Positions 2,687 through 63,372 of a stretch of DNA of 64,000 nucleotides are shown here, one piece after another; position 1 is the first letter of the stretch, and the number at the start of each line of letters is the position of its first letter. The DNA lies in NCBI GenBank assembly GCA_042568285.1, contig JBHPIX010000002.1, positions 783-64,782 of the forward strand, written 5' to 3'. Source of the DNA: Patescibacteria group bacterium. GTDB lineage: Bacteria > Patescibacteriota > Patescibacteriia > JAZDEU01. Position numbers and translations under genes: made by a program. The notes beneath the pieces are model-generated. The model was not told where the DNA came from. It made no database searches and saw nothing but the letters and a program-made list of their open reading frames with translations.

Positions 2687-5600
2687 ATGAAAAATAAATT
2701 TGTCCAGAACGAAGAAGATATATTAAAATTTTGGGAAAAAAATAAAACTTTTGAAAAATCAGTGCAAAAAAAAGCGCCAAAAGGCGATTATGTTTTTTAT
2801 GACGGGCCTCCTTTCGCGACAGGGCTTCCGCATTATGGACATATCGTTGCAAGTTTAATGAAAGATGTTGTTCCAAGGTATTGGACAATGAAAGGTTATA
2901 AAGTAGAAAGAAAATGGGGCTGGGACTGCCATGGATTGCCAGTTGAAAATATCGCTGAAAAAGAATTAAAAATAAAAAATAAAAAAGACATAGAAAAAAA
3001 TGGTGTCAAAAATTTCAATGAAGAATGCCGAGGTCTTGTGCTTAGATATGCTGATGAATGGAAAACAGTAATACAGAGAATTGGTAGATGGGTTGATATG
3101 GAAAATGATTATAAAACAATGGAAGCTGACTATATGGAATCAATCTGGTGGGTATTTAAATCATTATGGGATAAAAAATTGATCTATAAAGGTCATAATA
3201 GTATGCATATTTGTCCAAGATGCGGAACACCTCTATCCAATTTTGAGGTGAGTCAAAATTATCAGGACATAAAGGACTTATCTGTTATTGCTAAATTTGA
3301 ATTAGAAGACGAACCAGAAACATACATTTTAGCATGGACAACTACACCATGGACATTGCCGGGTAATGTTGCTTTAGCTATGGGCGCTAAAATTGATTAT
3401 GTAAAAATTAAAAATTTGAAGGATAATAAGCATTATATCTTAGCAAATGCAAATTTAGAACAATTATTCGCTACTGACGAATATAAGGTAGAACAAATAC
3501 TGCATGCGGAAGATTTGACAGGCAAAAAATATAAGCCTCTGTTTGATTATTTTATAAAAACAGATTTAGAAAATAAAGAAAATTTATATACAATTCAAAC
3601 TGCTAATTTTGTAATGGTTGGAGAAGGGACAGGAATAGTTCATATTGCTCCAGCATTTGGAGAAGATGATATGAATATAGGCAAAGAAAAAAAATTGCCT
3701 ATGATTCAACATGTTTCTCCAAATGGTAAATTTACGGATGATATAAAAGAATGGGCAAATGAAACTGTAAAACCAAAAGAAGATACACAAGCGACAGATA
3801 AAAAAATAGTTGATTATTTGGATAAAAAAGGATTAATTTTTAAATCAGAAGAATTTGAACATAGCTATCCATTATGCTGGCGATGCGATACGCCTCTTTT
3901 AAATTATGCCACTGACTCCTGGTTTGTAAAAGTTGCAGAAATAAAAGATAAAATGATAGCTAATAATGAAAAAATGAATTGGATGCCTAAACATATCAAA
4001 TATGGTCGATTTGGCAAATGGCTTGAGAATGCTAGAGATTGGGCTATTTCCCGCGAAAGATATTGGGGCGCTCCATTGCCAGTTTGGGAATGCGATAAAT
4101 GCGAAGAGACAGAAGTTATTGGAGATATAAAAACTTTGGAAGATAAAGCTCTTAAAAATGGAAAAGTTTATTTTATAAGACATGGAGAAGCTGACAATAA
4201 TGTAAATCAAACTTTAAATTCTAAAACAGATGATGACATTAACATAACAGAAAAAGGCATTGAAGAAATTAAAAAATCCGCGAATGAATTGAAAGATAAA
4301 AAAATAGATATTATAATTTCTTCCGACATTAATAGATCTGTTCAAAGCGCTGAAATTTTATCAAAAGAATTAGGATTAGAAATACAGTATGATAAAAGAT
4401 TACGGGAAGTAAATATAGGAGATTGGAATGGAGATTTAATGGAAGATCATAAAGATTTTATAAATAAATGGCGAGCTGGCGAATTAGTAACTTACCCTAA
4501 TGGAGAAAATTGGCTTGACGCAAAAAAAAGAATCAAATTATTCTATAATGATTTATTAAGGGACTATGGAAATAAAAATATTTTATTAGTTAGTCATGGC
4601 GATTTAAGCGTCGCTTTTGAAAGTATTTTAAAATCTAAAAATTTCCTGCAAAGCATTAAAGAAAAATTTAGTTCTTGCAAAAAACTTTCAGAAAATAACC
4701 ATAAAAATGCGGAAATAAAAATTTATGATCATAAAATTATAGATTTGCATAAACATAATATAGATTCTCTAAAATGGAAATGCGATAAATGCGATGGCGA
4801 AATGAAAAGAATTGATTCTGTTGTTGATTGCTGGTTTGAGTCAGGTTCTATGCCATACGCGCAAAATCATTATCCTTATGAAAATAAAGAAAAATTTGAA
4901 CAAAATTTTCCAGCGCAGTTTATAGCGGAAGGAATTGATCAGACAAGAGGATGGTTTTATACTCTGCTTGTTCTATCCAGCGCGCTATTTGACAAGCCGC
5001 CTGCGCTAAATGTAATTGTGAATGGAATTGTTTTAGCTGAAGATGGGCAAAAGATGGCAAAATCAAAAAAGAATTATCCTGATCCGATGAAAATTATTGA
5101 TGAATATGGAGTTGATCCATTAAGGCATTATTTATTATCATCTCCTGTTATGTCTGCCGAAGGATTAAATTTTTCAGAAAAAGGAGTTAAAGAATCTCTG
5201 CAAAAAACAGTAATGCTTATTAGTAATATCTTATCATTCTATAAAATGTATGAAGAAAAAACATCAGTAAATGAAAAAATTGATAGTTCTAATGTTCTTG
5301 ATAAATGGATAATAGCTATGCTTAATAAGCTAAATGCTACTGTTGAAAAATCTATGGATAATTATAATCTTCAAGAAGCATCGCGACCGATTGAAAAATT
5401 CATAAACGACTTTTCAACATGGTATTTGCGCCGTTCTAGAGATAGGTTTAAAGGTGATGATGAGAAAGATAAAGAATGCGCATTGCAAACAACCAAATAT
5501 GTATTAATTGAGTTGTCAAAAATAATAGCTCCTTTTATGCCGTTTATCTCTGAACAGGTTTGGCAGGAGACCACTGGTTATAATTTTAAGAATCCGGATA

Positions 5601-6124
5601 AAAGCGTGCATTTGGAGGAGTGGGCAAAGGCAGGTGAGATTGATAAAAATATTTTAGAAAAAATGGCATTAGTCCGCCAAATCGCGGAACAAGGATTATC
5701 AGCTCGCGCAGAGGCTGGTATAAAAGTTAGACAGCCACTTCAAGCATATTGCACTTCCCTAACAGATTCTCTTGAACCTGCATATATATCAATGCTTCAA
5801 GAAGAATTAAATGTTTTAGAAATAAAATTTGGCGAGGATAAATTATCTCTCAAATTAACTCCCGAATTAATTAGAGAGGGAATGGCGAGAGAATTAATTC
5901 GTCAGATAAATAACTTGCGAAAAAATCAAGGGTTAACTATAAACGACCGCGTAAAAATATATTATCAAACAAATTCTGAGGACATAAAAAATACACTTTC
6001 AAAATTAGGAGAACAAATTAAAAAAGATACTTTAGCGGATGAACTTATTTTTGGCGATGTTTTAGATGGGAAAGAGGTTAAAATTAATGGTGAGGTTGTT
6101 AGGATTGGGATAGAGAGGATATAA
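2687..6124 (+). CDS. ileS: Isoleucyl-tRNA synthetase with an inserted histidine-phosphatase-like domain
   Basis: It has a HIGH-type motif (PHYGHIVAS), a KMSKS-type motif (KMAKSKKN), WAISRERYWGAPLPVW and VVDCWFESGSMPYAQ. It is a single uninterrupted 1145-codon ORF. Confidence 0.93.
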   Translation: MKNKFVQNEEDILKFWEKNKTFEKSVQKKAPKGDYVFYDGPPFATGLPHYGHIVASLMKDVVPRYWTMKGYKVERKWGWDCHGLPVENIAEKELKIKNKKDIEKNGVKNFNEECRGLVLRYADEWKTVIQRIGRWVDMENDYKTMEADYMESIWWVFKSLWDKKLIYKGHNSMHICPRCGTPLSNFEVSQNYQDIKDLSVIAKFELEDEPETYILAWTTTPWTLPGNVALAMGAKIDYVKIKNLKDNKHYILANANLEQLFATDEYKVEQILHAEDLTGKKYKPLFDYFIKTDLENKENLYTIQTANFVMVGEGTGIVHIAPAFGEDDMNIGKEKKLPMIQHVSPNGKFTDDIKEWANETVKPKEDTQATDKKIVDYLDKKGLIFKSEEFEHSYPLCWRCDTPLLNYATDSWFVKVAEIKDKMIANNEKMNWMPKHIKYGRFGKWLENARDWAISRERYWGAPLPVWECDKCEETEVIGDIKTLEDKALKNGKVYFIRHGEADNNVNQTLNSKTDDDINITEKGIEEIKKSANELKDKKIDIIISSDINRSVQSAEILSKELGLEIQYDKRLREVNIGDWNGDLMEDHKDFINKWRAGELVTYPNGENWLDAKKRIKLFYNDLLRDYGNKNILLVSHGDLSVAFESILKSKNFLQSIKEKFSSCKKLSENNHKNAEIKIYDHKIIDLHKHNIDSLKWKCDKCDGEMKRIDSVVDCWFESGSMPYAQNHYPYENKEKFEQNFPAQFIAEGIDQTRGWFYTLLVLSSALFDKPPALNVIVNGIVLAEDGQKMAKSKKNYPDPMKIIDEYGVDPLRHYLLSSPVMSAEGLNFSEKGVKESLQKTVMLISNILSFYKMYEEKTSVNEKIDSSNVLDKWIIAMLNKLNATVEKSMDNYNLQEASRPIEKFINDFSTWYLRRSRDRFKGDDEKDKECALQTTKYVLIELSKIIAPFMPFISEQVWQETTGYNFKNPDKSVHLEEWAKAGEIDKNILEKMALVRQIAEQGLSARAEAGIKVRQPLQAYCTSLTDSLEPAYISMLQEELNVLEIKFGEDKLSLKLTPELIREGMARELIRQINNLRKNQGLTINDRVKIYYQTNSEDIKNTLSKLGEQIKKDTLADELIFGDVLDGKEVKINGEVVRIGIERI
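4105..4779 (+). other. Histidine phosphatase (PGAM/RHG superfamily)-like domain nested inside IleRS
   Basis: The segment reads VYFIRHGEADNN (RHG at 4178-4186) ... SSDINRSVQSAE ... LREVNIGDWNG ... LLVSHGD (SHG at 4592-4600). It lies between the two CDKC knuckles at 4091-4102 and 4781-4792. Confidence 0.7.
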
Positions 6125-6411
6125 ATAATAATTTTAAATGACAAATTTTAAATTTTAAAAAAATATCAAATTTTAAATGACTAAATGTTAAAATGCTATT
6201 ACTTTTTTAAAAATATCTTTATTCAAAACTATAATATTATTATTGTTTTATTGACTAACATATTACGAAATATGCCAAGTTTTAAAAATTTGTCATTTGT
6301 TATTTAAAATTGTTTTAAAATTTGAAATTTAAAATTTAAAATTATAAACTTTATTAAAATCACATACGCAGATTATTATAATAGGTAACCATATATCGCG
6401 TATGAGCCAAT

Positions 6412-7332
6412 TTACTCCCGATAATATTTTGCCGCGTCTTCTGGCGAGACTGGATTGATAACTAAGCCAGACCCGATTTCCACACCAGCCCAAACACTGC
6501 CACGGGGTGTTACTTTCATATACAAATGCTGATCCTCGTCGTTAATCACTTGATGGAAATAATAATTATAAGGTAAGCCCAAAGCGCTTATTTTTTTTAA
6601 GACTTTTTTTAAAATTTTAGCAAAAGATCCTCTTTCTTTATCTGTTAAACATGTAATATTATCTATATGCCTTATTGGCATAATCCAAATTTCATAATTA
6701 TGTATTGACGCGTAAGGAGTAAAGGCAACTACATTTTTATCTTTATAAACTAATCTTGGGCCTTTAGATTCTTTTTCTATAACATCGCAATAGACGCATG
6801 TTCCATGTCTTAACTTATATTCCTGCACCCTCTGACTCTTATCAATTAAATGCGGTGGCAAAAAAGAAGTCGCGAAAATTTGCGAATGGGAATGTATAAT
6901 AGAGGCTCCTGCTTTTCCTCCATTATTTTTAAAAATTAAAATATATTCTATTTCCTTGTCTTTTGAAATTGACTTTGTTCTTAAAGCGTAAACTTTTATC
7001 AATTCAGAAATATGATTTTCTGGCAAATCATCCAATTCCTTAAAATGATCTGGGGTTTCAATAATAACTTCCTGTGTTCCATAAGCTTTTGGATTATCCA
7101 AGCTTACAGCTGGAAAAATATTTTTTATTACCTTTACTCTCCAATCCTTTTTTGTTCCGACAGTCAATAAATCTTTAACTTTATTTACCTGCGCAGGACA
7201 AAAAACACAACTTTCACCTCGTGATGTATCTCCAATTTGAGGTTTTTCAATTTGATGAGGTCGCTTACCCCTAACAGGAGCTATAATAACATATTTTTCT
7301 TGGATATAATCTTTTCTTATTTCAGGTTTCAT
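6412..7332 (-). CDS. GalT/HIT-superfamily nucleotidyltransferase (galactose-1-phosphate uridylyltransferase or ADP-glucose phosphorylase-like)
   Basis: It has an N-terminal CVFCP zinc motif and the HSHSQ (HxHxQ) active-site motif. It is adjacent to glgA on the same strand. Confidence 0.7.
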   Translation of the reverse strand: MKPEIRKDYIQEKYVIIAPVRGKRPHQIEKPQIGDTSRGESCVFCPAQVNKVKDLLTVGTKKDWRVKVIKNIFPAVSLDNPKAYGTQEVIIETPDHFKELDDLPENHISELIKVYALRTKSISKDKEIEYILIFKNNGGKAGASIIHSHSQIFATSFLPPHLIDKSQRVQEYKLRHGTCVYCDVIEKESKGPRLVYKDKNVVAFTPYASIHNYEIWIMPIRHIDNITCLTDKERGSFAKILKKVLKKISALGLPYNYYFHQVINDEDQHLYMKVTPRGSVWAGVEIGSGLVINPVSPEDAAKYYRE

Positions 7333-7339: not shown

Positions 7340-9010
7340 TTATTTAATTAGCTTTTTATAAATTTTTAAATATTCTTTAGCAGAACGCCCCCATGAAGAA
7401 TCCCTCTTCATTCCATTTAACATTATTTTTTCCCACATTTTTTTATTCTGATAAACCTCTAAAGCATAATCTATTATTTTTAGCATAGCATTGGTAAAAT
7501 ATCTCTCAAAAACAAATCCATTCGCAGACTTTATAGACTTTACGACTTTATGGACTTTCAACTCGTTCACCGTATCAGCAAGCCCGCCTGTCTTTCTAAC
7601 AATTGGGACTGTCCCGTATCTCATTGCAGTAAGTTGACCAAGTCCGCACGGTTCAAATTTTGATGGCATTAAAAATATATCTGATCCAGCATAAATTCGC
7701 TGGGCTATTTTTAAATCAAATTTAATAAGCGGTTTAAAATTATATGGATACTTTTTTCCTAACTCTTTTAGTTTTGTTTCATATTCAGGATTTCCTGTTC
7801 CTAAAAGAATAAAAAACAAATTCGGATATTTCTTAAACATTTGAGGAATTGCGTCAATCACTAAATCAATACCCTTTTGAGACGCGAGGCGGGATATTAG
7901 TCCAATTAGCGGCTGCGACACGGTGGCTCCAAAATATTCCTTCAGTAAATCCTCTTTATTCTTCCTCTTTCCATCCAAATCTTTCACTGAATAATTATAT
8001 TTTATAAAGGAATCCGTCTCTGGATTAAACTTATCAACATCTATACCATTTATTATACCATAAAGATCATTTTTTCTCATTTTTAAAATATTGTCTAACC
8101 CTTCTCCACATTGTTTTGTTAAAATTTCTTTAGCGTAAGTAGGACTTACTGTTGTTATAACTTCTGATGATAAAATCCCCTGCGCCATTTTATTTATATC
8201 ACCATCACGAGAATCTGCCTCCAAATGTTTACTGCTATTTAATAAAATGTTCAAAGATTTTAATTTTTTCGTGGAAAATTGTCCCTGAAACTGCAAATTA
8301 TGAATAGTTAAAACTGTTTTTATATTTAATCCTTCATTTTTTAATAAAGCTGATATAAAGGCTGTATGATTATCATTACAATGAATTATGTCAGGTCTAA
8401 CGAACGCAAATCCGCCAGCATTGCCTCTCTTAAATACAGCTTGACTGGAATCAACACGAAAATTATCAGCGATTATTTCCGCTACTGCTTTTGAAAAAAA
8501 CAAAAATTTAACTGGCGGATGATAAATATCTTTACCCCCAAAATATTTTTTATTATCTATGAAATAGATCGGGACTGAATTACAATCATGGGCTTGATTT
8601 CCTTGTGTCATCCCGCGCTTGACGCGGGATCTACTTCTGGATTCCGTATCAAGCACGGAATGACATAAAGAACTATTTTTACTATTTTCATCCGTCCTTA
8701 CAGAAGCTACAATGTCAGCCTTATAAACATTAATCTTTTCATTCTTCCCATCAAATTCAACTGTAAAATTTTCTACAACATTCTCTAATAAATATTTTTT
8801 TTCATTACATTCAATTGCCGTTAATTTTTTGTTTTTAAATATTTTTTTTATATTGCCATACAAAGGCATCATAACACTAATATCAACACCCAGATTCGCC
8901 AAAGCTGGTGGCAAAGCTCCTGCAACATCAGCAAGCCCGCCCACTTTAGCAAATGGAGCCACTTCAGCTGATATGAAAAAAACTTTTGGGTTTTTTGTCT
9001 TTTTTATCAT
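7340..9010 (-). CDS. glgA: Glycogen/starch synthase (GT5) carrying an in-frame repeat insertion
   Basis: The N-terminus has the KxGGL motif (AEVAPFAKVGGLADVAGALP). C-terminal GT-B motifs are present (PSKFEPCGLGQLTAMRYGTVPIV, TGGLADTV). Confidence 0.85.
   Translation of the reverse strand: MIKKTKNPKVFFISAEVAPFAKVGGLADVAGALPPALANLGVDISVMMPLYGNIKKIFKNKKLTAIECNEKKYLLENVVENFTVEFDGKNEKINVYKADIVASVRTDENSKNSSLCHSVLDTESRSRSRVKRGMTQGNQAHDCNSVPIYFIDNKKYFGGKDIYHPPVKFLFFSKAVAEIIADNFRVDSSQAVFKRGNAGGFAFVRPDIIHCNDNHTAFISALLKNEGLNIKTVLTIHNLQFQGQFSTKKLKSLNILLNSSKHLEADSRDGDINKMAQGILSSEVITTVSPTYAKEILTKQCGEGLDNILKMRKNDLYGIINGIDVDKFNPETDSFIKYNYSVKDLDGKRKNKEDLLKEYFGATVSQPLIGLISRLASQKGIDLVIDAIPQMFKKYPNLFFILLGTGNPEYETKLKELGKKYPYNFKPLIKFDLKIAQRIYAGSDIFLMPSKFEPCGLGQLTAMRYGTVPIVRKTGGLADTVNELKVHKVVKSIKSANGFVFERYFTNAMLKIIDYALEVYQNKKMWEKIMLNGMKRDSSWGRSAKEYLKIYKKLIK
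8606..8665. repeat. 60-bp double-hairpin palindromic element inside the glgA ORF, in frame
   Basis: The sequence is tgtcatcccgcgcttgacgcgggatc-tacttctg-gattccgtatcaagcacggaatgaca. It has the same architecture and length as the intergenic copy at 13567-13626 and encodes CHSVLDTESRSRSRVKRGMT in GlgA. Confidence 0.85.
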
Positions 9011-11662: not shown

Positions 11663-11745
11663 TGTCATTCCGTGCTTGACACGGAATCCAGAAATTTTTA
11701 AATTTAACCTAAATAACTAGATTCCGCATCAAGTGCGGAATGACA
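11663..11745. repeat. Palindromic element (tgtcattccg ... gcggaatgaca family)
   Basis: The sequence is tgtcattccgtgcttgacacggaatcc ... gattccgcatcaagtgcggaatgaca, a double hairpin with a longer AT-rich spacer. Confidence 0.85.
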
Positions 11746-11802: not shown

Positions 11803-12354
11803 ATGGCTCATATAACAGGGGGAAACGAGCTCCTTAATCCAGAAAATTTACTTAAAAAAGCAAAGATAGCTACAAGTATGCAGATAGCTGATTTTGGCTG
11901 TGGCGGACAAGGACAGTTTGTTTTAACTGCTTCAAAAATTATAGGAAACGGAGGCACAATATATGCTGTTGATATACTAAAAACAGTTTTGGAAGGTATA
12001 GAAAGCAAAGCTAAATCTCAAGGTCTCAAAAATATAAAAACAATTTGGACTAACTTGGAAATCTATAAAGCAACTAAAATTGAAGATGCTAAATTAGACC
12101 TAGGACTTTTAATAAACACTTTGTTCCAAAGTAAAAAACATTTAGAAATAATAAAAGAATGCGTAAGGATGATCAGACTGCAAGGAACTTTAATGGTTAT
12201 TGATTGGAAAAATATTCCATCAGCATTTGGGCCAGCGACAGTTGATAGAGTTAATCAAGACGCAATAAAAGCAATAGCCAACCAAATCAATCTCCAGCTT
12301 ATAGAAGAATTTGACGCAGGTCATTATCATTATGGACTTTTATTTAAAAAATAA
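11803..12354 (+). CDS. Class I SAM-dependent methyltransferase
   Basis: It has the motif I sequence IADFGCGGQGQF and a Rossmann-like downstream pattern. Confidence 0.65.
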   Translation: MAHITGGNELLNPENLLKKAKIATSMQIADFGCGGQGQFVLTASKIIGNGGTIYAVDILKTVLEGIESKAKSQGLKNIKTIWTNLEIYKATKIEDAKLDLGLLINTLFQSKKHLEIIKECVRMIRLQGTLMVIDWKNIPSAFGPATVDRVNQDAIKAIANQINLQLIEEFDAGHYHYGLLFKK

Positions 12355-13566: not shown

Positions 13567-13626
13567 GTGTCATCCCGCACTTGATGCGGGATCCAGATAT
13601 AGATCCCGCATCAAGTGCGGGATGAC
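13567..13626. repeat. 60-bp double-hairpin palindromic element (canonical copy)
   Basis: The sequence is tgtcatcccgcacttgatgcgggatc-cagatata-gatcccgcatcaagtgcgggatgaca. Confidence 0.9.
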
Positions 13627-13663
13627 AAATTGAACTAATTAGTTACAATTTAATAAATTAAAA

Positions 13664-19339: not shown

Positions 19340-19431
19340 TGTCATCCCGCAATCCCGCCCTGCGGGATATGCGGGATCCAGCAATTACTACTTTCTTTAT
19401 TTCTGGATCCCGTGTCAAGCACGGGATGACA
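19340..19431. repeat. Palindromic element (tgtcatcccg ... cgggatgaca family)
   Basis: The sequence runs tgtcatcccgcaatcccgccctgcgggatatgcgggatcc ... ggatcccgtgtcaagcacgggatgaca. It lies between convergent genes. Confidence 0.85.
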
Positions 19432-20239: not shown

Positions 20240-21850
20240 ATGATCCCATTTCTCTTAAAACTTAATCCAAAAACTCATAACGACTTGTCACAAGCAAAGC
20301 GGAAATTAGCGTCTAATTTTAATTCGCCTATTTTTACAAATTCAGAACTACTTGAAAAATACCATAAATATCTAAAAAATACAAATACAAAACCTAACTT
20401 AATTCTACTTTCACTCTTAAAAAGACGGCAAGTTAGAACAGGCTCAGGAGTAGCTCCAGTAGCTATTTTAACTAAACCATATCCATGTCCTGGCAAATGT
20501 ATTTATTGCCCAAACGAAAAACAGATGCCTAAAAGCTATTTATCAAATGAACCTGCTGTAATGCGAGCTATTCTAAATAAATTCAATCCTTATAAACAAA
20601 TACAATCACGACTATTGGCATTAGAAGCTAATGGACATAATACTGATAAAATAGAACTAATAATAATGGGCGGAACATGGTCTTGCCTTCCTAAAAGTTA
20701 CCAGTTGAATTATATTATAAAATGTTTTAAAGCATGTAATGAGTTTGGCAACACGCACATACCCACATCTAATATGCCCGCCGAGTCGGCGGGGCAATAC
20801 CTTAAAAAACTCCAAAAACAAAACGAAAATGTAAAACATAGAATTGTAGGACTTACTTTAGAAACTAGACCAGACTTTATAAATATAGAAGAAATAAAAA
20901 GGATGCGCGAATTCGGATGCACAAGAGTTGAATTAGGCGTTCAGGCAATTGATGACAAAATTTTATCTTTAAATAAACGAGGGCATAGAATAAAAGAAAC
21001 AATTAATGCCACTAAATTATTAAGACAAGCTGGATTTAAAATATGCTACCACTTAATGCTTAATTTGCCTGGTTCCAATCCAAGTAAAGATTTAAAAATG
21101 TTTAAAGAAATATTCTCCAACCAAAATTATCAACCAGATTTAATAAAAATTTATCCATGTGTAGTTACAAAAAATGCTCCGTTATATAACTGGGTTAAAC
21201 AAGGCAACTATATTCCTTACAGTCCTAAAATACTTACCGAACTTATCATTAAAATAAAACTAATAATTCCTTCTTACGTAAGAGTAATTAGGGTTATAAG
21301 AGACATTCCAACAACTTCTGTAATATCTGGCAACAAAATTTCAAACCTTCGGGAAAATACGCATAAAATAATGGCAAAGAGAGGTCTTCACTGTCAATGT
21401 ATAAGGTGTAGAGAAATAGGAAAATTCAAAATTCAAAATTCAAAATTCAAAATTAAAAATTATGAGACATCTTCGGGCGAAGAATATTTTTTATCTTATG
21501 AAGATTTAAAACAAAATAAATTATTAGCATTCTTGAGACTTCAAATCCCTTCAAATGATACTTTAACAGAAAATAAAAGTATATATAAATACTTTCCTTG
21601 CTTAAAAAATTCCGCAATTATTCGCGAAGTCCACACTTACGGGACATTAGTGCCAATCAATAAACGACTCAAAAGAGCTACTCAGCATATTGGATTTGGA
21701 AAAAAACTAATTAAAAAAGCCGAAAAAATCGCATTTAAAAAGGGGTATAACAAAATTGTTGTTATTGCGGGTGTTGGGGTAAGGGAGTATTATAAAAAAT
21801 TAGGGTATAAAACTCAAAACACATATATGGTTAAAAATTTGTCCTTGTAA
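20240..21850 (+). CDS. Elp3-like radical-SAM / GNAT acetyltransferase
   Basis: It has a Cys-rich radical-SAM region (CPGKCIYCPNE), ELIIMGGTWS and LETRPDFI, then a C-terminal GNAT-like segment (HIGFGKKLIKKAEKIA). Confidence 0.75.
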   Translation: MIPFLLKLNPKTHNDLSQAKRKLASNFNSPIFTNSELLEKYHKYLKNTNTKPNLILLSLLKRRQVRTGSGVAPVAILTKPYPCPGKCIYCPNEKQMPKSYLSNEPAVMRAILNKFNPYKQIQSRLLALEANGHNTDKIELIIMGGTWSCLPKSYQLNYIIKCFKACNEFGNTHIPTSNMPAESAGQYLKKLQKQNENVKHRIVGLTLETRPDFINIEEIKRMREFGCTRVELGVQAIDDKILSLNKRGHRIKETINATKLLRQAGFKICYHLMLNLPGSNPSKDLKMFKEIFSNQNYQPDLIKIYPCVVTKNAPLYNWVKQGNYIPYSPKILTELIIKIKLIIPSYVRVIRVIRDIPTTSVISGNKISNLRENTHKIMAKRGLHCQCIRCREIGKFKIQNSKFKIKNYETSSGEEYFLSYEDLKQNKLLAFLRLQIPSNDTLTENKSIYKYFPCLKNSAIIREVHTYGTLVPINKRLKRATQHIGFGKKLIKKAEKIAFKKGYNKIVVIAGVGVREYYKKLGYKTQNTYMVKNLSL

Positions 21851-27120: not shown

Positions 27121-27231
27121 TGTCATCCCGCACTTGATGTCCGCTTCGGATTGCCCAAAGCGAGACGAGCGGGATCTATTCTGGATTCCGCGTCAAGCCT
27201 CGCCGAATCGGCGGGCAAGCGCGGAATGACA
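27121..27231. repeat. Palindromic element, composite copy with nested modules in both hairpins
   Basis: The sequence is tgtcatcccgcacttgat[gtccgcttcggattgcccaaagcgagacgagc]gggatc ... ggattccgcgtcaag[cctcgccgaatcggcgggc]aagcgcggaatgaca. Confidence 0.85.
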
Positions 27232-37139: not shown

Positions 37140-37350
37140 CAAAACTACTATCCCTGAAAATATAATCTATCTTGTCTACATCAAAAGGGCCATTTATGAT
37201 ATGGGCAAGAAAAAGCTTTGATGGCTCTTTAGTCTTTCCTATAATATACTTAGCTACTGTATCCAAATCTATTGATATAGGATAATTTGACTCAATGTTT
37301 TTATGGATTAATCCAACACAAGACTTTAATTCTCTGGGAAGTGGATTGTC
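37140..37350 (-). pseudogene. HD-domain (dGTPase/SAMHD1-like dNTP triphosphohydrolase) fragment abutting the right IS end
   Basis: The minus-strand frame reads ...LIHKNIESNYPISIDLDTVAKYIIGKTKEPSKLFLAHIINGPFDVDKIDYIFRDSSF and then enters the IS IR. It has no start codon and overlaps the 5' end of the LamG ORF. Confidence 0.45.
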
Positions 37351-40300
37351 TTACGAGCAGATATTTATAAGTAAGTCTCCTACAAATGGCGCAGAAGAAG
37401 GAAGTTTTATTTTTAAAATTGATACAGATACAGATAAATTGCAATTTGGCGCGTTTGATAATGCAGGCGATGTTGTTGTTAATATTTTTGGTACGAATAC
37501 ATCTTGGAATGCTAATCAATGGTATCAAATAGCAATTACATTTAATGGGGCAGGTTATGAAGTTTATTTAGACGGTCAGTCGGATGGGTACACTACAGAT
37601 TCAGATTCGTTTGGTTCAACAGATCAAACATATTACATTGGAAGAGCTGGAAATGATGTAAATCCTCAATATTTCGACGGCCTCATAGACTCTGTCAGAA
37701 TATACAACCGAGCCCTAACCGCGAATGAAATAAGGGCGCATTATGATTTGGGAAGCCATATACAAGATGGGGATATGGAGGATGCTTCTGGCAGTCGTGT
37801 TGTTGGAGAATGGAATCAGTCAAGCGAGGGAGCGGAACTTTTAACAAATGGAGGATTTGAAACAGCTGGCGGTGGCGGAGCAGATGTTTGGGGAACATGG
37901 GCGGAAAACGCTGGGGATGGCGGGTTGGCGAATGAGACAAGTATAAAATACGCTGGTTCGGATGCGGCATCAACAACTGCTGGAAGTTTAACAGACACTT
38001 TTGTCAAACAAGCCGCGGCAGTTACCACTGGCAATATGTATAAGGCGACATTTTATACAAGAGGCGATGGAACATATTCAGGACAATACGCGATTTGGGA
38101 TGCCACAAATGATGCTGTTATAACAGCCACAACAACAGCTGGAATTACTGGAACAACATACACTAAATTTACAAAATATTTCACAGCGCCATCCAGTTGC
38201 GCGTCAGTTGATCTGCATTTATACGCGCCATCAACTGAAGGCGGAACCGCGTATTTTGACGATGCGTCTGTCATAGCCGCCCAAGTGGCGTCACCCGAAT
38301 CTGGAATTGTTCGCGCGGAAGATGGGCTTGTCGGGGGGTGGAATTTTAGTGGAACATCCGGGACATCCGCGGATGGGGATACTTTGACAGATGTGTCTGG
38401 AAACAGCAATGATGGAACAGGCGTTGATGGAGCTAATAATACTGGTTTAGGATTTGTGAGTGGTCGGTTTGGGACTGCGATTGAGTTTGATGGGGTGGAT
38501 GATTATGTTGATTGTGGAACGAATAGTAGTTTATTACCAAATATATTTACAGCCATAGCATGGGTTAAATATGATGGAAGTCAGACAGATGCACCTTTGA
38601 TTACTTGGGCTACAACTCAACCCGGGATTTATATCGAGTTCTTGAACGTCGGTCCACTTATCTATATTGGTGTTGAAAATTTTAGATACTTTGAAAAAGA
38701 TAGTCCAGTTGATGTATTTAATAATAAATGGCATCAGCTTGCTTTTGTAGTAACAGGTAATGCCCAAAACGATATTGATAATTCAAAATTATATGTTGAT
38801 GATAGAGAACAAGATATTAGGACTACTAACAATACTGGTACGCCCGACACAAAAACTTTTCTTAGAATTGGAGTTGGGCATTCGAATTATTTCAACGGCG
38901 CCATAGACTCCGTTCGCGTATATAACCGCGCCCTATCTGCAGGTGAAATAGTGGCGCATTATTCGTCCACACGAGGGAAGTTTGGGGAGTATTCCGCGAA
39001 GATAAAATTAGTAGATGATAATAGCAACAGTTATTTAGATGAAATATTAACTGATGATCAAGATTATCTGCTGTCATATTGGTATAAAGCAGGAGAAGAC
39101 AATGCTAATCCGATAAATTTTACAGCGTCTGGCACTGCCATAATGCTTCCTGAACAAAACATAATGGCTTCGTCCACAACCGGACTTGTGGGAGCTTGGA
39201 ATTTTGAGGAAGCGGCGACACCATCGGTAGATGTATCTGGAAATGGACATTCATTAACATGGAACGGAACAGCGGCAAAATCAACATCTGGAAAATTCGC
39301 AAACGCGATAGACTTAGATGGCGATAGCGATTATTTAAATAAAACAGATTCAGATAGTTTAGATTTAGCATCAGCCGCAACAATATCAGCATGGGTATAT
39401 TTAGATGATCTTGCTGCCCAACACTGCATTGCGGACAAAGGAACAAATTACGGAGTTCATATAGATACTTCAGGATATTTAACATGGGATAATGGAACAG
39501 AATATAAAGACACAACAGCAATAGCGGCAACAACATGGACGCATGCAGTAGTAGTTAATGATGGAACAACAGCAAGTTATTACATCAATGGAACTTACTC
39601 AAGCAATGACACAGCAGGATTCGCGGCTATAAACGCAAGCGATTTAAGAATAGGATATGATGGAACAAATTATTACCAAGGATTGATAGATAATTTGAGA
39701 ATATATAATAAAGCCCTAACTGCCTCTGAAGTGTATGAAAGCTATAAAGCAGGAGATTGGAGACAATATGAACTGTCATTTGAAGCAGACGCTGGAGTAG
39801 CAGGAGTCCATGCTTTTAGCTTTATTCAAGATGGAACAACAGCCGGCAACAGCATCGTTTATGTGGATAACTTTAGATTGGATAAAAATTTAGCGGATAA
39901 AGGTTCGTTTGAAGCTTTTTCCGGCGGAGACCCTGACATTCCAACTGGATGGGTAAATGAAAGTTTGTCAGCAGGAGAAGGGGACGAAGGCGATGAGGAA
40001 ATACATTCTGGAAGCAAAAGTTTTGAACTCATTGACGCCGACGATGGAGAAGGAATTATGCAGGGGATTACTGTGACATCTGGCAATTGGTACACATTTG
40101 GAATGTGGGCAAAAAATAATAATCAAGATGTGGAAGCAATAATAGGAGGAACAGCTCTCGCAAGCACAACCATTGATTTGACGACCGCGGGAAATATTTG
40201 GACAAAATTTAATAAAACATTTATCGCAAGCAGTACAGATTTGGCGATTTTAATTTCTGCCGGAGCCGCAACCCAAGACGGATATTTTGACGATGTAAGT

Positions 40301-42757
40301 CTGGTAGAGCTGGACTCCTACTCTGGCGCGGCAACTGCCACAACAACAACACCATCGTCTGCCGCAAACTCATACAGCTATGGCAGATGGGGAGAATCTT
40401 CTGGCTCGTTGATGATGGATGGAGGGGATACTTTAACATACCCGACAGCGAATAATATGTATGCTGATCAAGGATCATTCAGCTTTTGGATAAAGCCGTC
40501 TATGGACTATGACGACTATGCGGAAAATAAATACCTTTGGGATGTTTCAGACGGAACAAATAACGCCATAAGATTATATTACAATTATTCTGACTATAAA
40601 TTCTATTTTGAAATATACGACGGAGCGTCTTGGACATCTGTGCAAGCAGCTTCTTCTGCTCAATCTTTTACAGAAGACACGTGGATACATTTGGCAGGCA
40701 CATGGAACGACAGAAAAAATTTGGTTTATTTATATGTGAACGGCGCGAATGACGGATCATCGGATTGGGGTTGGTACGCGCAAACATTGCCGACTAATAT
40801 GTATTTTGGATCTGATTACAGCGGAACAAATAACGCTGATATGTATATTGACGATTTGCGGGTTTATGAATACGCGCTTTCAGCGGAAGATATTAGCCGA
40901 ATGTACGGCTCTCTTCCAGATCCGTCTGCTGACAATTTAAGAGTATCAATCCCATTCACATCAGGAGGAATTGGCATAGACGGAACTGGATTATTTGATC
41001 TCACTGGAACGTTTACTGCTGGGTGGGGATACCGAACTGGAAAAGTGTCTGGAGAAAACGCCATGCTCTTCGCTGGTTCCGACGATCTGCAGTTTTCACG
41101 TGGAGACCAGCTGGACGGCAACATTTATGAATATATTAGCCCGTATCAGGGCACGATTAAAACTTGGGTTAGATCTGGATTTGATGGATCAGATTCTACA
41201 ACAAATTACATTTTCCAAAATGGAAGCACAAGCTACATCAAACTGTACTCCAGTTCAGGAACTCTATATTTTGACATAGCAACAACAACAGGCGCTGTTA
41301 TTAGCAGAGTATCAAATGACATTTCTGGCTGGACAGCGGGAGAGTGGCATCATATTGCCGCAGTTTGGAGCAATGAAAATACTGTTTCAACAAGTTCCAC
41401 TCAATATTTAATGGAACTATATGTGGACACTGCCATCGCTGGAAATACTTATACTAATGCCACATTTAACACAAATTTTTGGGCATCGTTCGCCCCCGGA
41501 ACATCTTTTATTGGAGAAGATTCAGATTCAGCAAATCAGTGGGATGGATTGATTGGAGGATTTGTTTTGGAAAATCGGGCTTGGAGCGGGAATGAAGTGT
41601 CTGACGACTATAATTCTGGAACAGGCACTGCGGTTGCGGTTAATCAATCAACCATTATGTCCCTGCCATTTGATTCAGCTGATCTTGACGGATTGGTAAC
41701 TTGGGCAACCTCTACACAAAATGTGGTGGCTGATTGGAATATGGAAGATGGGGATGCGGGGGAATGGACAGATACGTTAAACGCTTCCAGCTCCGCAGAA
41801 TCAGGAATCGTAACAGCAGAGGATGGGTTGGTGGGGGGATGGAATTTTGAGGATGATTTAACAGATGATAGCGGGAATAGCAAGACAGGCGTTTCTCATA
41901 CAGATCCAGACTGCCCGACAGGCTATGTATTTGTTCCCGGTAATTCAACTTATAGCACAAGCGATTTCTGTGTAATGCAATATGAAGCGAAGTATGATTC
42001 TAATGACGACGGGACAGGGGATGACGCGCCAACAGAATGTAAATATAACACAGATTATGATACTTGGGACTGGGGGAAAGATGTAGCGACAGAATGCGGG
42101 TATGATGTAAATGAAACAGCAAGAGTAGTATCAACAGCGGCAGGATCTCCAATAGCTGGCATTACGCATACAGAAGCGTTAAGCGCCTGTCCCTCTGGGG
42201 ATCATATAATAACAAATGACGAATGGATGACAATCGCAAGAGACGCGGAACAAGTGAATGCTAACTGGACAGGCGGAGAAGTCGGTTCGGGGTGTTTGTT
42301 TGCAGGGAATAATGGAGACGCGACTTGCGGGTATAATGGCGATGATCCAGAAAAAGGAACTGGAAGAAACGCGAGAGCTAAATTTATTCTTTCCAGCGGA
42401 GAAGAAGTTTATGATATATCAGGAAATGTTTGGGAACATGTAAAAGTTGATGCAAGTGATACTTTAATTGATGACACTCCTACTGACGGCGGGGCGGCTG
42501 AATGGCGTTGGATTGAATTTACAGCTATTACAGGCTATGGCGATCTTAGTTATGATCAAATTAGACCTTCTAATTCTTCTTGGAATGCTGATCAAGGGAT
42601 GGGGCGATTATATACCTATAATGGCGTGAGTAGCAACCGCGTGTTTCTTCGTGGTGGCATGTGGTCCGATGATACTAACGCCGGCGCGTTCACGTTGAGC
42701 TTGAATTGGACGGCGAGCACTCAGCATTATACTGTTGGTGTGCGGTGTGCCAGGTAG
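37295..42757 (+). CDS. DGR target protein: multi-LamG (concanavalin-A-like) repeat protein with CBM-like modules and a C-terminal C-type-lectin/FGE-sulfatase-fold variable domain; apparently 5'-truncated
   Basis: The LamG signature recurs (F(D/N)G.IDSVRIYNRAL(T/S)A.EI..HY) along with NGGFE...YFDD modules. The C-terminus reads CPTGYVFVPG...DISGNVWEHV...VFLRGGMWSDDTNAGAFTLSLNWTASTQHYTVGVRCAR. There is no signal peptide or RBS, and the ORF begins inside a LamG domain (MFLWINPTQ). Confidence 0.85.
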   Translation: MFLWINPTQDFNSLGSGLSYEQIFISKSPTNGAEEGSFIFKIDTDTDKLQFGAFDNAGDVVVNIFGTNTSWNANQWYQIAITFNGAGYEVYLDGQSDGYTTDSDSFGSTDQTYYIGRAGNDVNPQYFDGLIDSVRIYNRALTANEIRAHYDLGSHIQDGDMEDASGSRVVGEWNQSSEGAELLTNGGFETAGGGGADVWGTWAENAGDGGLANETSIKYAGSDAASTTAGSLTDTFVKQAAAVTTGNMYKATFYTRGDGTYSGQYAIWDATNDAVITATTTAGITGTTYTKFTKYFTAPSSCASVDLHLYAPSTEGGTAYFDDASVIAAQVASPESGIVRAEDGLVGGWNFSGTSGTSADGDTLTDVSGNSNDGTGVDGANNTGLGFVSGRFGTAIEFDGVDDYVDCGTNSSLLPNIFTAIAWVKYDGSQTDAPLITWATTQPGIYIEFLNVGPLIYIGVENFRYFEKDSPVDVFNNKWHQLAFVVTGNAQNDIDNSKLYVDDREQDIRTTNNTGTPDTKTFLRIGVGHSNYFNGAIDSVRVYNRALSAGEIVAHYSSTRGKFGEYSAKIKLVDDNSNSYLDEILTDDQDYLLSYWYKAGEDNANPINFTASGTAIMLPEQNIMASSTTGLVGAWNFEEAATPSVDVSGNGHSLTWNGTAAKSTSGKFANAIDLDGDSDYLNKTDSDSLDLASAATISAWVYLDDLAAQHCIADKGTNYGVHIDTSGYLTWDNGTEYKDTTAIAATTWTHAVVVNDGTTASYYINGTYSSNDTAGFAAINASDLRIGYDGTNYYQGLIDNLRIYNKALTASEVYESYKAGDWRQYELSFEADAGVAGVHAFSFIQDGTTAGNSIVYVDNFRLDKNLADKGSFEAFSGGDPDIPTGWVNESLSAGEGDEGDEEIHSGSKSFELIDADDGEGIMQGITVTSGNWYTFGMWAKNNNQDVEAIIGGTALASTTIDLTTAGNIWTKFNKTFIASSTDLAILISAGAATQDGYFDDVSLVELDSYSGAATATTTTPSSAANSYSYGRWGESSGSLMMDGGDTLTYPTANNMYADQGSFSFWIKPSMDYDDYAENKYLWDVSDGTNNAIRLYYNYSDYKFYFEIYDGASWTSVQAASSAQSFTEDTWIHLAGTWNDRKNLVYLYVNGANDGSSDWGWYAQTLPTNMYFGSDYSGTNNADMYIDDLRVYEYALSAEDISRMYGSLPDPSADNLRVSIPFTSGGIGIDGTGLFDLTGTFTAGWGYRTGKVSGENAMLFAGSDDLQFSRGDQLDGNIYEYISPYQGTIKTWVRSGFDGSDSTTNYIFQNGSTSYIKLYSSSGTLYFDIATTTGAVISRVSNDISGWTAGEWHHIAAVWSNENTVSTSSTQYLMELYVDTAIAGNTYTNATFNTNFWASFAPGTSFIGEDSDSANQWDGLIGGFVLENRAWSGNEVSDDYNSGTGTAVAVNQSTIMSLPFDSADLDGLVTWATSTQNVVADWNMEDGDAGEWTDTLNASSSAESGIVTAEDGLVGGWNFEDDLTDDSGNSKTGVSHTDPDCPTGYVFVPGNSTYSTSDFCVMQYEAKYDSNDDGTGDDAPTECKYNTDYDTWDWGKDVATECGYDVNETARVVSTAAGSPIAGITHTEALSACPSGDHIITNDEWMTIARDAEQVNANWTGGEVGSGCLFAGNNGDATCGYNGDDPEKGTGRNARAKFILSSGEEVYDISGNVWEHVKVDASDTLIDDTPTDGGAAEWRWIEFTAITGYGDLSYDQIRPSNSSWNADQGMGRLYTYNGVSSNRVFLRGGMWSDDTNAGAFTLSLNWTASTQHYTVGVRCAR
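42635..42756 (+). other. DGR variable region (VR)
   Basis: It is 122 nt and 109/122 identical to 43199-43320, with 11 mismatches opposite TR adenines. It covers the last 40 codons of the target ORF. Confidence 0.88.
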
Positions 42758-44586: not shown

Positions 44587-45849
44587 ATGATTCAAAGAGA
44601 AGCGTTGCAAAAAATTAAAAAATGGCTTGGTAAAGAAAAAATCTTGATTATTAAAGGCGCTAGGCAAGTTGGCAAAACGTTTTTACTCAAAGAAATTAAA
44701 AAAGATTTAGAAAATACAGGAGCCAAAGTTGTCTATTTATCAGCAGATGAAATTGACAATAAATTAATATTAAAAAGTTCTGATAGTCTAAAATTATATT
44801 TAGAGCAATATTTTAATTTTCCCAATGAGTTTATTTATTTAATGATTGATGAGTTTCAAGTAATAGAAGAAGCTGGGATTTTGCTCAAAAATATTTTTGA
44901 CAAATATAAAAATAAAATTCAGCTGATTGTTAGCGGATCAAGCGCGTTAGAGATAAATAAAAATTCGGAATATTTAACAGGCAGAGCTATTCATTTTAAT
45001 ATTGATAGGATTAATCTTAAAGAATATTTTGATTATCACGAAGACATAAATACTAAGAGATATAAACTTGCCCAATTTAATGAATTAAAAATATTTTTTG
45101 AAACCTTCAAACCAAAATTGGAATTGAGTCTTGGAGAATATCTGTCTTATGGAGGTTATCCAGAAGTTTTGACAACTCAAAATGTGGAAGAAAAAGAGGA
45201 GGTACTTAAATCTATTATCAAAACATATATTGACAAAGATATTATCAATCAGTTGAACGTGGAAAATATCACTGGCTTTAATAATTTGATAAAAATTTTA
45301 GCCGGGCAAATAGGGCAATTAACAAATAACAATGAACTTGCAAATACATCCAATATATCTATCAATACTTTAAAAAAATATTTAGAAATTTTGGTAGGCA
45401 CTTATGTTATTGATTTAGTTACCCCATATTTTAAAAATATTCGTTCAGAAATTTCCAAAATGCCAAAAGTTTATATTTTGGATATTGGTATTAGAAATTA
45501 TCTTTTGCGAACTTTTGAAATAAATTTGGATGGGCAAGGATCAGTAATTGAAAATTTTGTTTATAATACTTTGCTAACTCAATATGCCAAAGAATATATC
45601 CATTTTTATCGCACTTCTGCCGGAGCGGAAATTGATTTTGTGATTGAAGATAAAAATAATAAATTAACACTTTGCGAGGTAAAGTATAGAAATAAAATAA
45701 ATGTGCCAGTGATAATGAAAAATTTTGAGGAAAGATATACCAATGTTGGAAAAAAATTGATTATAACAAAAGATTTATTGAAAATAGAAAAAAGTGTTTA
45801 TTTTATTCCAGTCGCGCTTTTACCGTTTGTGGATTTAGGATTATTATGA
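44587..45849 (+). CDS. AAA-family ATPase of the COG1373 type (AAA_14 + DUF4143-like C-terminus)
   Basis: It has Walker A (GARQVGKTFLL) and Walker B-like (LMIDEFQ) motifs, and the C-terminal half is typical of this family. Its stop overlaps the start of the next gene (ATGA). Confidence 0.75.
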   Translation: MIQREALQKIKKWLGKEKILIIKGARQVGKTFLLKEIKKDLENTGAKVVYLSADEIDNKLILKSSDSLKLYLEQYFNFPNEFIYLMIDEFQVIEEAGILLKNIFDKYKNKIQLIVSGSSALEINKNSEYLTGRAIHFNIDRINLKEYFDYHEDINTKRYKLAQFNELKIFFETFKPKLELSLGEYLSYGGYPEVLTTQNVEEKEEVLKSIIKTYIDKDIINQLNVENITGFNNLIKILAGQIGQLTNNNELANTSNISINTLKKYLEILVGTYVIDLVTPYFKNIRSEISKMPKVYILDIGIRNYLLRTFEINLDGQGSVIENFVYNTLLTQYAKEYIHFYRTSAGAEIDFVIEDKNNKLTLCEVKYRNKINVPVIMKNFEERYTNVGKKLIITKDLLKIEKSVYFIPVALLPFVDLGLL

Positions 45850-48483: not shown

Positions 48484-48640
48484 AAAGAATCCCCCTCGTC
48501 TCGCCTTTCCGCTTCGGGCTCGAATCGAGACGAGCGGCAAGCCGAAGCGGACTGACCCCCTTTTGAAAAGGGGGAACTAGAGGAATTAATTTAGCAAGTG
48601 CCCCCCTCTGGAGGGGGGATAGGGGGAAGGTTAAATTTTA
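48484..48640. repeat. GC-rich modular repeat cluster (intergenic)
   Basis: The sequence aaagaatccccctcgtctcgcc...ggcaagccgaagcggactgacccccttttgaaaagggggaacta is followed by the gtgcccccctctggagggggg palindrome. The first module recurs inside the giant ORF at 51956-52024. Confidence 0.85.
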
Positions 48641-48709
48641 AATTTTAAAAAAACCTGCCCGACTTTGTCATTCAGGCGGGTATCAAATAACAAATTTTAA
48701 AAGGGCTCT

Positions 48710-48786
48710 GGATTCCCGCCTTCGCGGGAATGACAAAAACGCATTCGTGGGGAATGACAAAGAGGCTTCGCGGGAATGACAAAAAC
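48710..48786. repeat. Three tandem half-elements ending in gggaatgacaaa
   Basis: The sequence is ggattcccgccttcgcgggaatgacaaaaac / gcattcgtggggaatgacaaagag / gcttcgcgggaatgacaaaaac. It generates the artificial MTK...GMTK N-terminus of ORF 48730. Confidence 0.8.
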
Positions 48787-48816
48787 GGGAGGGGAGGGAA
48801 TAATTTCAAATTAGTT

Positions 48817-49350
48817 ATGGTTATAAATATGCTTAAAGAAGAAAACAATTTAGCTTTTGTTGACGGACAGAATTTATATTTAGGGACAACAAAGTCAAAA
48901 AACAGGTGGAAAGTTGATTTAGCTAAGTTTAGAATTTATTTGAATAAAAAATATAAAGTTGATAAAGCTTATTATTTTTTGGGGTGCGTTAATGATAATT
49001 ACCAAGATTTGTATGACGAAATTCAAGAAGCTGGTTTTATTTTGAAATTTAGAGAACATAATACTGTTATGTTGGGGAAGAAAAAAGGCAATGTTGATTC
49101 AGATATTATATTTTTTATTATAGAAAAAATGTATAGAAAAGAAAAATTTGATAAAATTATTTTAGTCTCTGGCGATGGTGATTATAGAAAATTAGTTGAT
49201 TTTTTGATTGAAGAAAATAGGTTTGAGAAAATTCTTTTTCCAAATAAGAAATTCGCGTCTTCCTTGTATAAAAAATTATCAAGCAAATATTATGACCATT
49301 TAGGAAACGAGGAAATAAAAGCGAAAATAAAAAAGGGTCCCCTTAGGTAG
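48817..49350 (+). CDS. NYN/LabA-like (PIN-like) domain protein
   Basis: It has LAFVDGQNLY, GNVDSDIIF and ILVSGDGDY motifs. The start is moved to ATG 48817 because the first 29 codons of the tracked ORF are repeat sequence. Confidence 0.7.
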   Translation: MVINMLKEENNLAFVDGQNLYLGTTKSKNRWKVDLAKFRIYLNKKYKVDKAYYFLGCVNDNYQDLYDEIQEAGFILKFREHNTVMLGKKKGNVDSDIIFFIIEKMYRKEKFDKIILVSGDGDYRKLVDFLIEENRFEKILFPNKKFASSLYKKLSSKYYDHLGNEEIKAKIKKGPLR

Positions 49351-49597: not shown

Positions 49598-49785
49598 AAA
49601 ATTTGGCAAGGAATTTATAAATATGGTATAATAATTGGGGAATGAATTTTAAATTTTAAATTTAAAAAAAATAATCAATAATAAATATCAAATAACCAAA
49701 CGGGAAAATCAAATCCAAATGTCAAAAATGGAAATGGGAATTTAAAATGTTTAAAAGAAATATAAAATTAAAAAATAAAAATAGC

Positions 49786-58839: not shown

Positions 58840-58869
58840 ATTTTGAAATTTGAAATTTTATAAAATTAT

Positions 58870-61965: not shown

Positions 61966-61977
61966 AATATATTTTAT

Positions 61978-63318: not shown

Positions 63319-63372
63319 AGCTCAAAGCTCCCGCCAACACGGCCGTGCCTACCGGCAGGCAGGCAAAGTATT

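Follow-up and report, generated by a model that had tools for sequence, protein, structure and literature searches.

An inverted TGTC-tagged hairpin dimer, in frame within the glycogen synthase gene of a patescibacterium, is probably a gene-less member of a known bacterial repeat class

A 64 kb stretch of a Patescibacteria contig (JBHPIX010000002.1; the whole stretch is referred to here as the window) carries eight two-hairpin elements and one degenerate cluster of a single repeat, and one of the eight, at 8606–8665, lies in frame within glgA, the gene for glycogen (starch) synthase. From its sequence features, the repeat unit is assigned to the class known variously as CGTC/TGTC-tagged repetitive extragenic palindromes (REPs), Neisseria dRS3/NTS and 'Ssn-related motifs' (SRMs). 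It is considered probable that the glgA element is a gene-less inverted hairpin dimer of this known class, and that it is tolerated in a loop of the enzyme; such dimers may have spread by way of a GIY-YIG nuclease.

Each element is an inverted pair of one oriented 29 nt unit (TGTCATTCCGCACTTGATGCGGAATCCAG), consisting of a TGTC head, an 8 bp stem (AT-YCCGYR/YRCGGR-AT), a 5 nt loop (CTTGA) and then a C, usually followed by CAG. The TGTC head is at the start of every intact unit of the window, and the tail is ATC-CAG in most of them, the left unit of the glgA copy being a CTAC variant. The heads of a dimer face outward, and each DNA strand has one correctly oriented unit on its 5′ side. In this AT-rich DNA (G+C 29–43% in 2 kb steps), the terminus TGTCATYCCG is matched 20 times with no more than one mismatch, compared with 4.0 expected and a maximum of 10 in shuffled sequences. 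A covariance model of the 29 nt half unit found nine intact units at E ≤ 2e-10 and two further matches at E < 0.005 (an NTS-like unit at 48708–48735, and an interrupted unit at 19340–19380). An earlier note on this DNA had proposed a modular family of GC-rich double hairpins, and that proposal holds. The unit has an orientation, because its own strand scores 46–50 bits with this model and the opposite strand, at the same sites, only 9–10 bits. The density in the contig is about one unit per 7 kb, nearly always just downstream of genes. An Rfam scan of the window returned only a tRNA, and the element corresponds to no curated RNA family.

The glgA gene (7340–9010, minus strand) encodes a protein of 556 aa with the Pfam domains PF08323 and PF00534, and matches NCBIfam model TIGR02095 in two stretches (488 bits). 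The element within it (TGTCATCCCGCGCTTGACGCGGGATCTACTTCTGGATTCCGTATCAAGCACGGAATGACA; 60 bp, 8 nt spacer, read on the minus strand in GlgA) is composed of a left half unit on the plus strand (8606–8634; stem ATCCCGCG/CGCGGGAT, loop CTTGA, tail C-TAC; 47.9 bits, E = 5.8e-11) and an inverted right half unit on the minus strand (8637–8665; TGTCATTCCGTGCTTGATACGGAATCCAG; one G-T stem pair; 47.6 bits, E = 7.2e-11). The DNA flanking it reads ...AGTTCTTTA on one side and CAAGGAAAT... on the other. In the glgA frame it supplies codons 116–135, i.e., the 20 residues CHSVLDTESRSRSRVKRGMT, and leaves the ORF intact, just as the earlier note had described. The 60 bp form is stop-free only in frame 1 of each strand, and it is this frame that the glgA copy uses. 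Tryptic peptides with element-encoded residues would include, for example, one ending ...NSSLCHSVLDTESR or one starting GMTQGNQAHDCNSVPIYFIDNK. A scan of the element-encoded peptides against NCBIfam gave no model for Rickettsia palindromic elements (RPEs), or any other, at E ≤ 10, and a 40-residue profile of the concatenated element peptides gave eight candidates and one weak match in a protein collection, by a word-index search that is ill-suited to such a query.

Alignment of the window protein with 15 homologues (alignment A1) shows that the columns of the 20 element residues are empty in five of the eight closest relatives (P0004, P0005, P0007, P0008 and P0009) and in all seven distant homologues, and that in the insert-free relatives the flanking beta strands are joined by only 2–3 residues. 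The catalytic residues and all other invariant columns of this alignment are retained, and the reading frame is uninterrupted over 556 codons. The AlphaFold model of GlgA (mean pLDDT 83.7, pTM 0.83) places residues 116–135 between strands 89–101 and 145–152, and pLDDT falls below 50 only at residues 1–4, 104–143 and 188–202. Solved glycogen synthases align to residues 10–54 and 201–554, and not across the insert region. At the level of aligned protein sequences, the glgA copy is confirmed as an insertion relative to its orthologues, and the 20 residues are predicted to form a disordered extension of a surface loop, which bears out the suggestion of a loop insertion.

In-frame GC-rich inserts of other kinds also occur in orthologous glgA genes of the same clade of the candidate phyla radiation (CPR), as seen in five independent assemblies, both at this loop and at other ones. 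They include CCCCCCC-TTATAAA-GGGGGGG types (P0002), a GTCATTCC...GGAAT type (P0003) and a 38-residue composite (P0005). Orthologues with inserts at several loops are found at L001 10001–11749, L138 657–2339, L139 8001–9698 and L140 839–2425, and with these differing inserts the protein varies from 484 to 582 residues in length. Considering the length of the insert (60 bp, 20 codons), its stop-free frame, its position at a 2–3-residue loop, and the other inserts in sister lineages, the modelled GlgA most likely tolerates the element as a disordered 20-residue loop extension, and the decorated enzyme is presumably made and active.

In the syntenic relative L001, dimers of the TGTC/CGTC class are found, but not at the sites used in the window; one is 27 nt upstream of the glgA start and one at 5429–5509, and none is inside its glgA. 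With gene order conserved between the genomes, such differences in occupied sites are consistent with mobility. Between glgA and a galT-like gene, which are adjacent in the window, L001 also carries a gene of the 23S_rRNA_IVP family (11828–12217).

Conservation of the hairpin was examined in 136 units from other genomes, gathered by a pattern blind to complementarity. At the three stem pairs that this pattern left free, Watson–Crick pairing is found in 133, 134 and 131 of these units, with both alternatives common. In an alignment of 16 sequences (A4), 99.2% of cells are paired and six of the eight pairs vary at both positions; no shuffle out of 500 reached this pairing and covariation, and shifted registers dropped to 12–47% pairing. 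The stem is maintained by selection, with compensatory changes across genomes. Folded as single-stranded DNA, the glgA copy gives −16 to −18 kcal/mol (z of −4 to −5). Its two halves have different stem variants (a heterodimer), and its fold is weaker than that of the intergenic homodimers, each of which forms one long hairpin of −30 to −35 kcal/mol. Target-site duplications are absent from a set of 70 dimers drawn from many genomes, the identity of the flanks at k = 1–3 being equal to the permuted expectation, and the inverted repeat extends by a single base only (T at −1, A at +1). These dimers are 36–196 bp long, mostly 54–123 bp, and multiples of three are not favoured.

The CGTC-tagged REP superfamily was defined by Di Nocera, De Gregorio & Rocco (2013, BMC Genomics 14:522; PMC3733652). 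Its members have an unpaired CGTC head (TGTC in many repeats, with CCTC as a further variant), a stem of 8–9 bp with A-T in the first two pairs, a loop of 4–5 nt, and a short unpaired tail fitting CCA. Most occur as inverted homo- or heterodimers, for the greater part downstream of ORFs where the neighbouring genes are unidirectional or convergent, and the same study reported that they probably act as RNA. Intragenic copies were found in several species, more than half of them as dimers or groups encoding 20–30 residues. The units of the window show the same head, stem, loop, tail, inverted-dimer arrangement and position downstream of ORFs, and the 20 residues encoded by the glgA dimer are of the published size. 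By geometry, the CTTGA loop and 8 bp stem fit CGTC family 2, as judged against the description of that family rather than its sequences. The host range differs, in that the superfamily was reported from five phyla (Proteobacteria, Chlorobi, Bacteroidetes, Spirochaetes and Thermotogae), whereas the present host belongs to Patescibacteria and the unit was found in over 15 phyla.

A second description of the class comes from Chenal et al. (2025, Nat Commun 16:2388; PMC11893778), who reported NTS/SRM hairpins flanking small GIY-YIG genes across bacteria in a survey of RefSeq reference and representative genomes; neither CPR genomes nor gene-less dimers within coding regions are mentioned in their paper. 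The Neisseria NTS (CGTCATTCCCGCGMAVGCGGGAATCYRG) includes dRS3 (PMC11893778). The published SRM pattern, HGTCWYN(0-2)YYVSBRHN(0-5)WNVSBRGN(0-2)RNCYNB, has five matches in the window, including 8606–8634, compared with a mean of 0.09 in 100 simulated sequences. Shared with NTS/SRM are the GTCAT head, the palindrome led by AT, and the C directly after the palindrome. The common unit of the window differs from NTS in its 5 nt CTTGA loop and in a stem that is one base pair shorter.

Within a collection holding one genome per species, the exact 26 nt unit pattern was found in at least 119 stretches, and among the matches listed the identical unit occurs in over 15 phyla. The hosts are Patescibacteria (at least 13 loci), Bacteroidota, including cultured Flavobacteriaceae, Pseudomonadota, Campylobacterota, Nitrospirota, Planctomycetota, Chloroflexota, Cyanobacteria and others. 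At most loci this unit stands as the left partner in a dimer whose right partner is another variant, often a form with a GAAAG loop. Matches in viral contigs are few (six stretches in only four contigs), and so there is no sign of phages as the main carriers. In IMG/VR, L143 and L146 (one 42 kb viral contig) and L147 hold 2–4 copies of the unit each. A single exact unit with no recognisable partner was seen in the metagenome-assembled genome (MAG) of a Methanosarcinales archaeon (L017, 366–391), and could be either a binning contaminant or a real transfer. Seven of about 130 sampled units outside the window are in long open frames, and four of these are unambiguous insertions, in frame, into real proteins, as identified by Pfam: MurB of a Candidatus Daviesbacteria member of the CPR (L088), HemN of a Bacteroidales MAG with two inserts (L071), an NAD_binding_4 reductase of a Nitrospirae MAG (L062), and a Wzy_C protein of an unclassified bacterial MAG (L060).

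In other genomes the unit is found at the borders of a nuclease gene. Seonamhaeicola sediminis W255 (L118) has a unit identical to window 11717–11745 directly upstream of a GIY-YIG gene encoding 100 residues, and an inverted unit directly downstream (unit on the plus strand, 6674–6697; gene, 6705–7004; unit on the minus strand, 7013–7036). The same layout, a GIY-YIG gene between two inverted TGTC units, occurs in a Bacteroidales MAG (L036, 5285–5644), and the two gene products are of 100–106 residues. With inverted units bordering the gene in both genomes, the dimers of the window look like the gene-less counterpart of this cassette. Ssn proteins, relatives of these gene products, recognise the hairpin solely in single-stranded DNA, to which they bind, and cleave a few bases 5′ of it, the bases just before the palindrome being key for cutting and the C just after it for binding; the arrangement NTS-ssnA-NTS resembles an insertion sequence, according to its authors (PMC11893778). 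By analogy, a GIY-YIG single-strand nuclease would nick 5′ of each outward-facing unit, and since one correctly oriented unit lies at the 5′ end of each strand, both outer borders would be nicked. The nicks could lead to excision or copying of the dimer, which would then be a non-autonomous partner of the unit-nuclease-unit cassette, and such a process would leave no target-site duplication.

Several observations weigh against the proposed insertion and nuclease-driven spread. No GIY-YIG or Ssn gene was found in the window or in the examined CPR loci, using a motif regular expression, tblastn with three small GIY-YIG proteins encoded at other loci, and a profile HMM built from five such proteins, so the route by which the dimers spread stays inferred. 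(The profile has at least 8000 matches in a large protein collection, and the best 120, all Flavobacteriaceae and similar with none from the CPR, are uninformative on the CPR.) What has been shown for Ssn is the cutting of DNA rather than its transposition, and its known role in Neisseria is the restriction of transforming DNA (PMC11893778), a form of control not known to apply to the present host. A metagenome scan with GlgA gave no strain-level empty site, the best relative being 46% identical, and with no empty site at the DNA level the glgA insertion is deduced from the protein alignment. The closest orthologue (64%) has a different insert in the same loop. Finally, the TCCG-stem variants, whose stem is shorter by one base pair, for that reason fall narrowly outside the SRM pattern.

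Other explanations can be set against the same evidence. A classical MITE (miniature inverted-repeat transposable element), a deletion derivative of an insertion sequence with a DDE transposase that is cut and pasted via its terminal inverted repeats, would account for the TGTCAT...ATGACA ends, the small non-coding body and the many dispersed copies. However, MITEs make target-site duplications and the 70 dimers have none, which contradicts this origin; the window contains no transposase gene or longer element sharing the ends, and the whole element is two self-folding units rather than two ends around a remnant, all of which makes a MITE very unlikely. The absence of target duplication, the inverted hairpin doublet and the position downstream of genes are all shared with REPINs, REP doublets moved by RAYT or another tyrosine (HUH) transposase of the IS200/IS605 type acting on single-stranded hairpins. 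Although Di Nocera et al. left open whether such enzymes mobilise CGTC repeats, they recorded no dedicated transposase as of 2013, and none of the RAYT or IS200 genes they examined was flanked by CGTC units (PMC3733652). RAYT-associated REPs carry a GTAG head and not the TGTC/CGTC of the window family, and elsewhere the gene that the unit flanks encodes a GIY-YIG nuclease. In the window no ORF was seen to resemble RAYT, although no search aimed at RAYT was made there. Overall, a REPIN-type origin seems unlikely.

The position of the copies in the window suggests another possibility, namely that they are non-mobile host signals (hairpins at mRNA 3′ ends, terminators, or tags recognised by a nuclease to control incoming single-stranded DNA as in Neisseria), and that the glgA copy arose from another copy by recombination or gene conversion. 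Six of the seven intergenic dimers sit 20–130 nt past a stop codon, the class is reported mainly after ORFs and to act probably as RNA (PMC3733652), and the sole demonstrated function of a unit together with Ssn is the restriction of transforming DNA (PMC11893778). A host-signal role is plausible for the intergenic copies, and is compatible with mobility. As a full explanation it is improbable, as it leaves unexplained the copy in the middle of a coding region, the modules nested within hairpins, and the different sites occupied in L001, and no T-run follows the hairpins of the window copies. Least credible of all is an artefact, either a metagenome mis-assembly through the repeat or a decaying pseudogene. 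The contig does come from a metagenome-assembled genome, in which repeats can make chimeric joins, but glgA continues on either side of the element without a change of frame, collinear with its orthologues, which makes a false join unlikely, and typical reads are longer than the 60 bp of the element. The ORF of 556 codons is open, with its invariant residues present and a confidently predicted fold, and the in-frame GC-rich inserts of the orthologues come from five independent assemblies.

A gene-less inverted dimer, tolerated in GlgA and perhaps spread by a GIY-YIG nuclease, is the favoured reading. A wider proposal goes further, and is put forward only tentatively, as more doubtful than not: that the dimers are the non-autonomous form of a pan-bacterial mobile element, of which the GIY-YIG cassette would be the autonomous form, and that palindromes repeatedly remodel protein loops in the CPR. 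If true, there would be a class of mobile DNA driven by a GIY-YIG enzyme, with no transposase; at least two other families of GC-rich palindromes would take part, and the glgA loops of one CPR clade and a 2761-residue surface protein of the window would be examples of a regular source of variation in protein length.

The likeness to Rickettsia palindromic elements (Ogata et al. 2000, Science 290:347, as summarised in PMC10969869), which the earlier note had raised, turns out to be more than analogy, as RPE-4 and RPE-6 of Rickettsia conorii were identified as CGTC-4 and CGTC-1 repeats, the latter also being dRS3 in Neisseria (PMC3733652); the link to the window rests on this published assignment. 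According to that summary, RPEs also lie in frame in housekeeping genes, at fold-compatible sites, in small genomes of host-dependent bacteria, and an in-frame insertion of this type is what the glgA copy presents. Its patescibacterial host and the absence of an NCBIfam model for its peptides keep it outside the RPE family itself. As summarised there, the classic RPE-1 is about 150 bp long with a conserved peptide, whereas the peptides of the window match no NCBIfam model, and 44 insertions in genes are given for R. conorii, in contrast to one genic dimer out of eight here.

Neisserial intergenic mosaic elements (NIMEs; Bentley et al. 2007, PMC1797815), in which dRS3 hairpins surround variable spacers, resemble the window in the flanking of such spacers by hairpin repeats and in the clustering with other repeat families, as at 48487–48790. 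NIMEs differ in forming long arrays and were thought specific to Neisseria, whereas the copies of the window are mostly isolated dimers with spacers of 8–25 nt. More generally, REP/REPIN/BIME, ERIC, Correia and Coxiella QMITE1 repeats are likewise small, structured and non-coding, REPINs also being inverted doublets, and for several such REP and MITE families occasional in-frame fusions with host ORFs have been reported. REPINs are set apart by the GTAG head and tyrosine transposase partner, neither of them found here. NTS differs in its association with ssn, a gene that the window does not contain.

Translation of a repeat dimer as part of a housekeeping enzyme is not in itself a novelty, and in-frame insertion of small palindromic repeats is established in Rickettsia, Wolbachia, Coxiella, enterobacteria and others (PMC3733652; PMC10969869). 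The novelty suggested beforehand holds for the host and not for the behaviour: literature searches found no description of such elements in Patescibacteria, and the CPR, with its very small genomes that are thought to be streamlined, appears to be a new host group for the class. The breadth of the identical unit across phyla is apparently new, as is the finding that, in one CPR clade, several repeat families have repeatedly decorated the loops of glgA. The main practical value is in the annotation of CPR proteins, where stretches such as CHSVLDTESR...GMT, VIPHLMRDP and VIPAKAGIQ are translated repeats and not lineage-specific motifs. Such translated repeats inflate protein length and split domain matches, as in the two-piece match of GlgA to its family model. 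The scientific value is as a test case for the spread of repeats by GIY-YIG enzymes, which is directly testable because the unit is found both as gene-less dimers and at the borders of GIY-YIG genes.

Seven of the eight dimers in the window are intergenic, as had been noted. With 87.5% of the window coding, yet only one dimer in eight genic (P = 3e-6), genic copies are either strongly selected against or avoided. All eight two-hairpin copies listed previously exist, although the count of at least nine is properly eight plus a cluster. Seven of their positions were given exactly; the eighth, placed at 13567–13626, is shifted by one base and lies at 13568–13627. This copy and the one in glgA are exactly 60 bp, the minimal form recognised earlier. 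The copy at 13568 is a homodimer with identical halves between convergent genes, and folds into a single 26 bp hairpin (−34.9 kcal/mol). At 63445–63506 there is a 62 bp copy with two intact units, downstream of ORF 61960–63318, and at 11663–11745, between divergent genes, an 83 bp copy with two intact units and a 25 nt AT-rich spacer.

The remaining four copies have GC-rich modules nested inside their hairpins, as the earlier note had reported for the longer forms; the 11663 copy is longer only by its spacer. The 110 bp copy at 2521–2630 has units interrupted by other GC-rich modules, and lies between ORFs of 595 and 1145 aa that are, by synteny with L001, aspartyl- and isoleucyl-tRNA synthetases. 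The 92 bp copy at 19340–19431, between convergent genes, has a nested GC-rich insert in its left unit and an intact right unit. Both hairpins of the 111 bp copy at 27121–27231 are interrupted by nested modules (27140–27169 and 27199–27215), and the 107 bp copy at 61859–61965 has the same modules in the opposite orientation. The same module sits at a matching position in three of the longer copies, so that spread has extended to composite variants. In ORF 61960–63318 the first ATG belongs to the element terminus ATGACA (61960–61965). The likely true start is the second Met at 61978 (MNKTKKIIL..., resembling a signal peptide), and the listed start is probably an artefact of the repeat.

The cluster, described beforehand as half-element copies at 48710–48786, is real but spans 48666–48781, and is degenerate, with one intact unit on the minus strand (48708–48735; TGTCATTCCCGCGAAGGCGGGAATCCAG) and two further GGGAATGACA ends. 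The intact unit agrees with the Neisseria NTS consensus (PMC11893778) at 27 of 28 bases. The surrounding region (48487–48790) packs at least four GC-rich repeat families into about 300 bp, a mosaic resembling a miniature NIME array, and lies immediately upstream of, and overlaps the start of, an NYN-domain gene (48730–49350).

In-frame palindromes of families other than the TGTC unit occur in the 2761-residue ORF at 50083–58368, which has three GC-rich segments, at 50106–50196 (residues 8–38), 51958–52051 (626–657) and 53209–53315 (1043–1078). The first is of the same family as an insert in the P0002 glgA, and the true start codon may be downstream of it; a near-identical copy of the second is intergenic, at 48487–48580.

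Other repeats were seen in the window. A 65 nt inverted repeat (58776–58840 and 63372–63436; 98% complementary) surrounds 4.5 kb with two genes for surface proteins (one He_PIG/cadherin-like, one with bacterial TSP3 repeats). Both arms are hairpin-containing elements with TTTGACATTT borders, and the right arm abuts the 63445 dimer. Short AT-only repeats of the AAATTT/TAAAATT type are found in intergenic DNA at 6119–6354, where they form a 75 nt imperfect inverted repeat, and at 21408–21459, 49644–49699 and 63523–63550. Diverged direct repeats of 75–300 nt (61–77% identity) at 37670–39745 and 46257–47192, within and between the very large ORFs 37295–42757 and 45846–48428, look like repeated protein domains and not mobile DNA.

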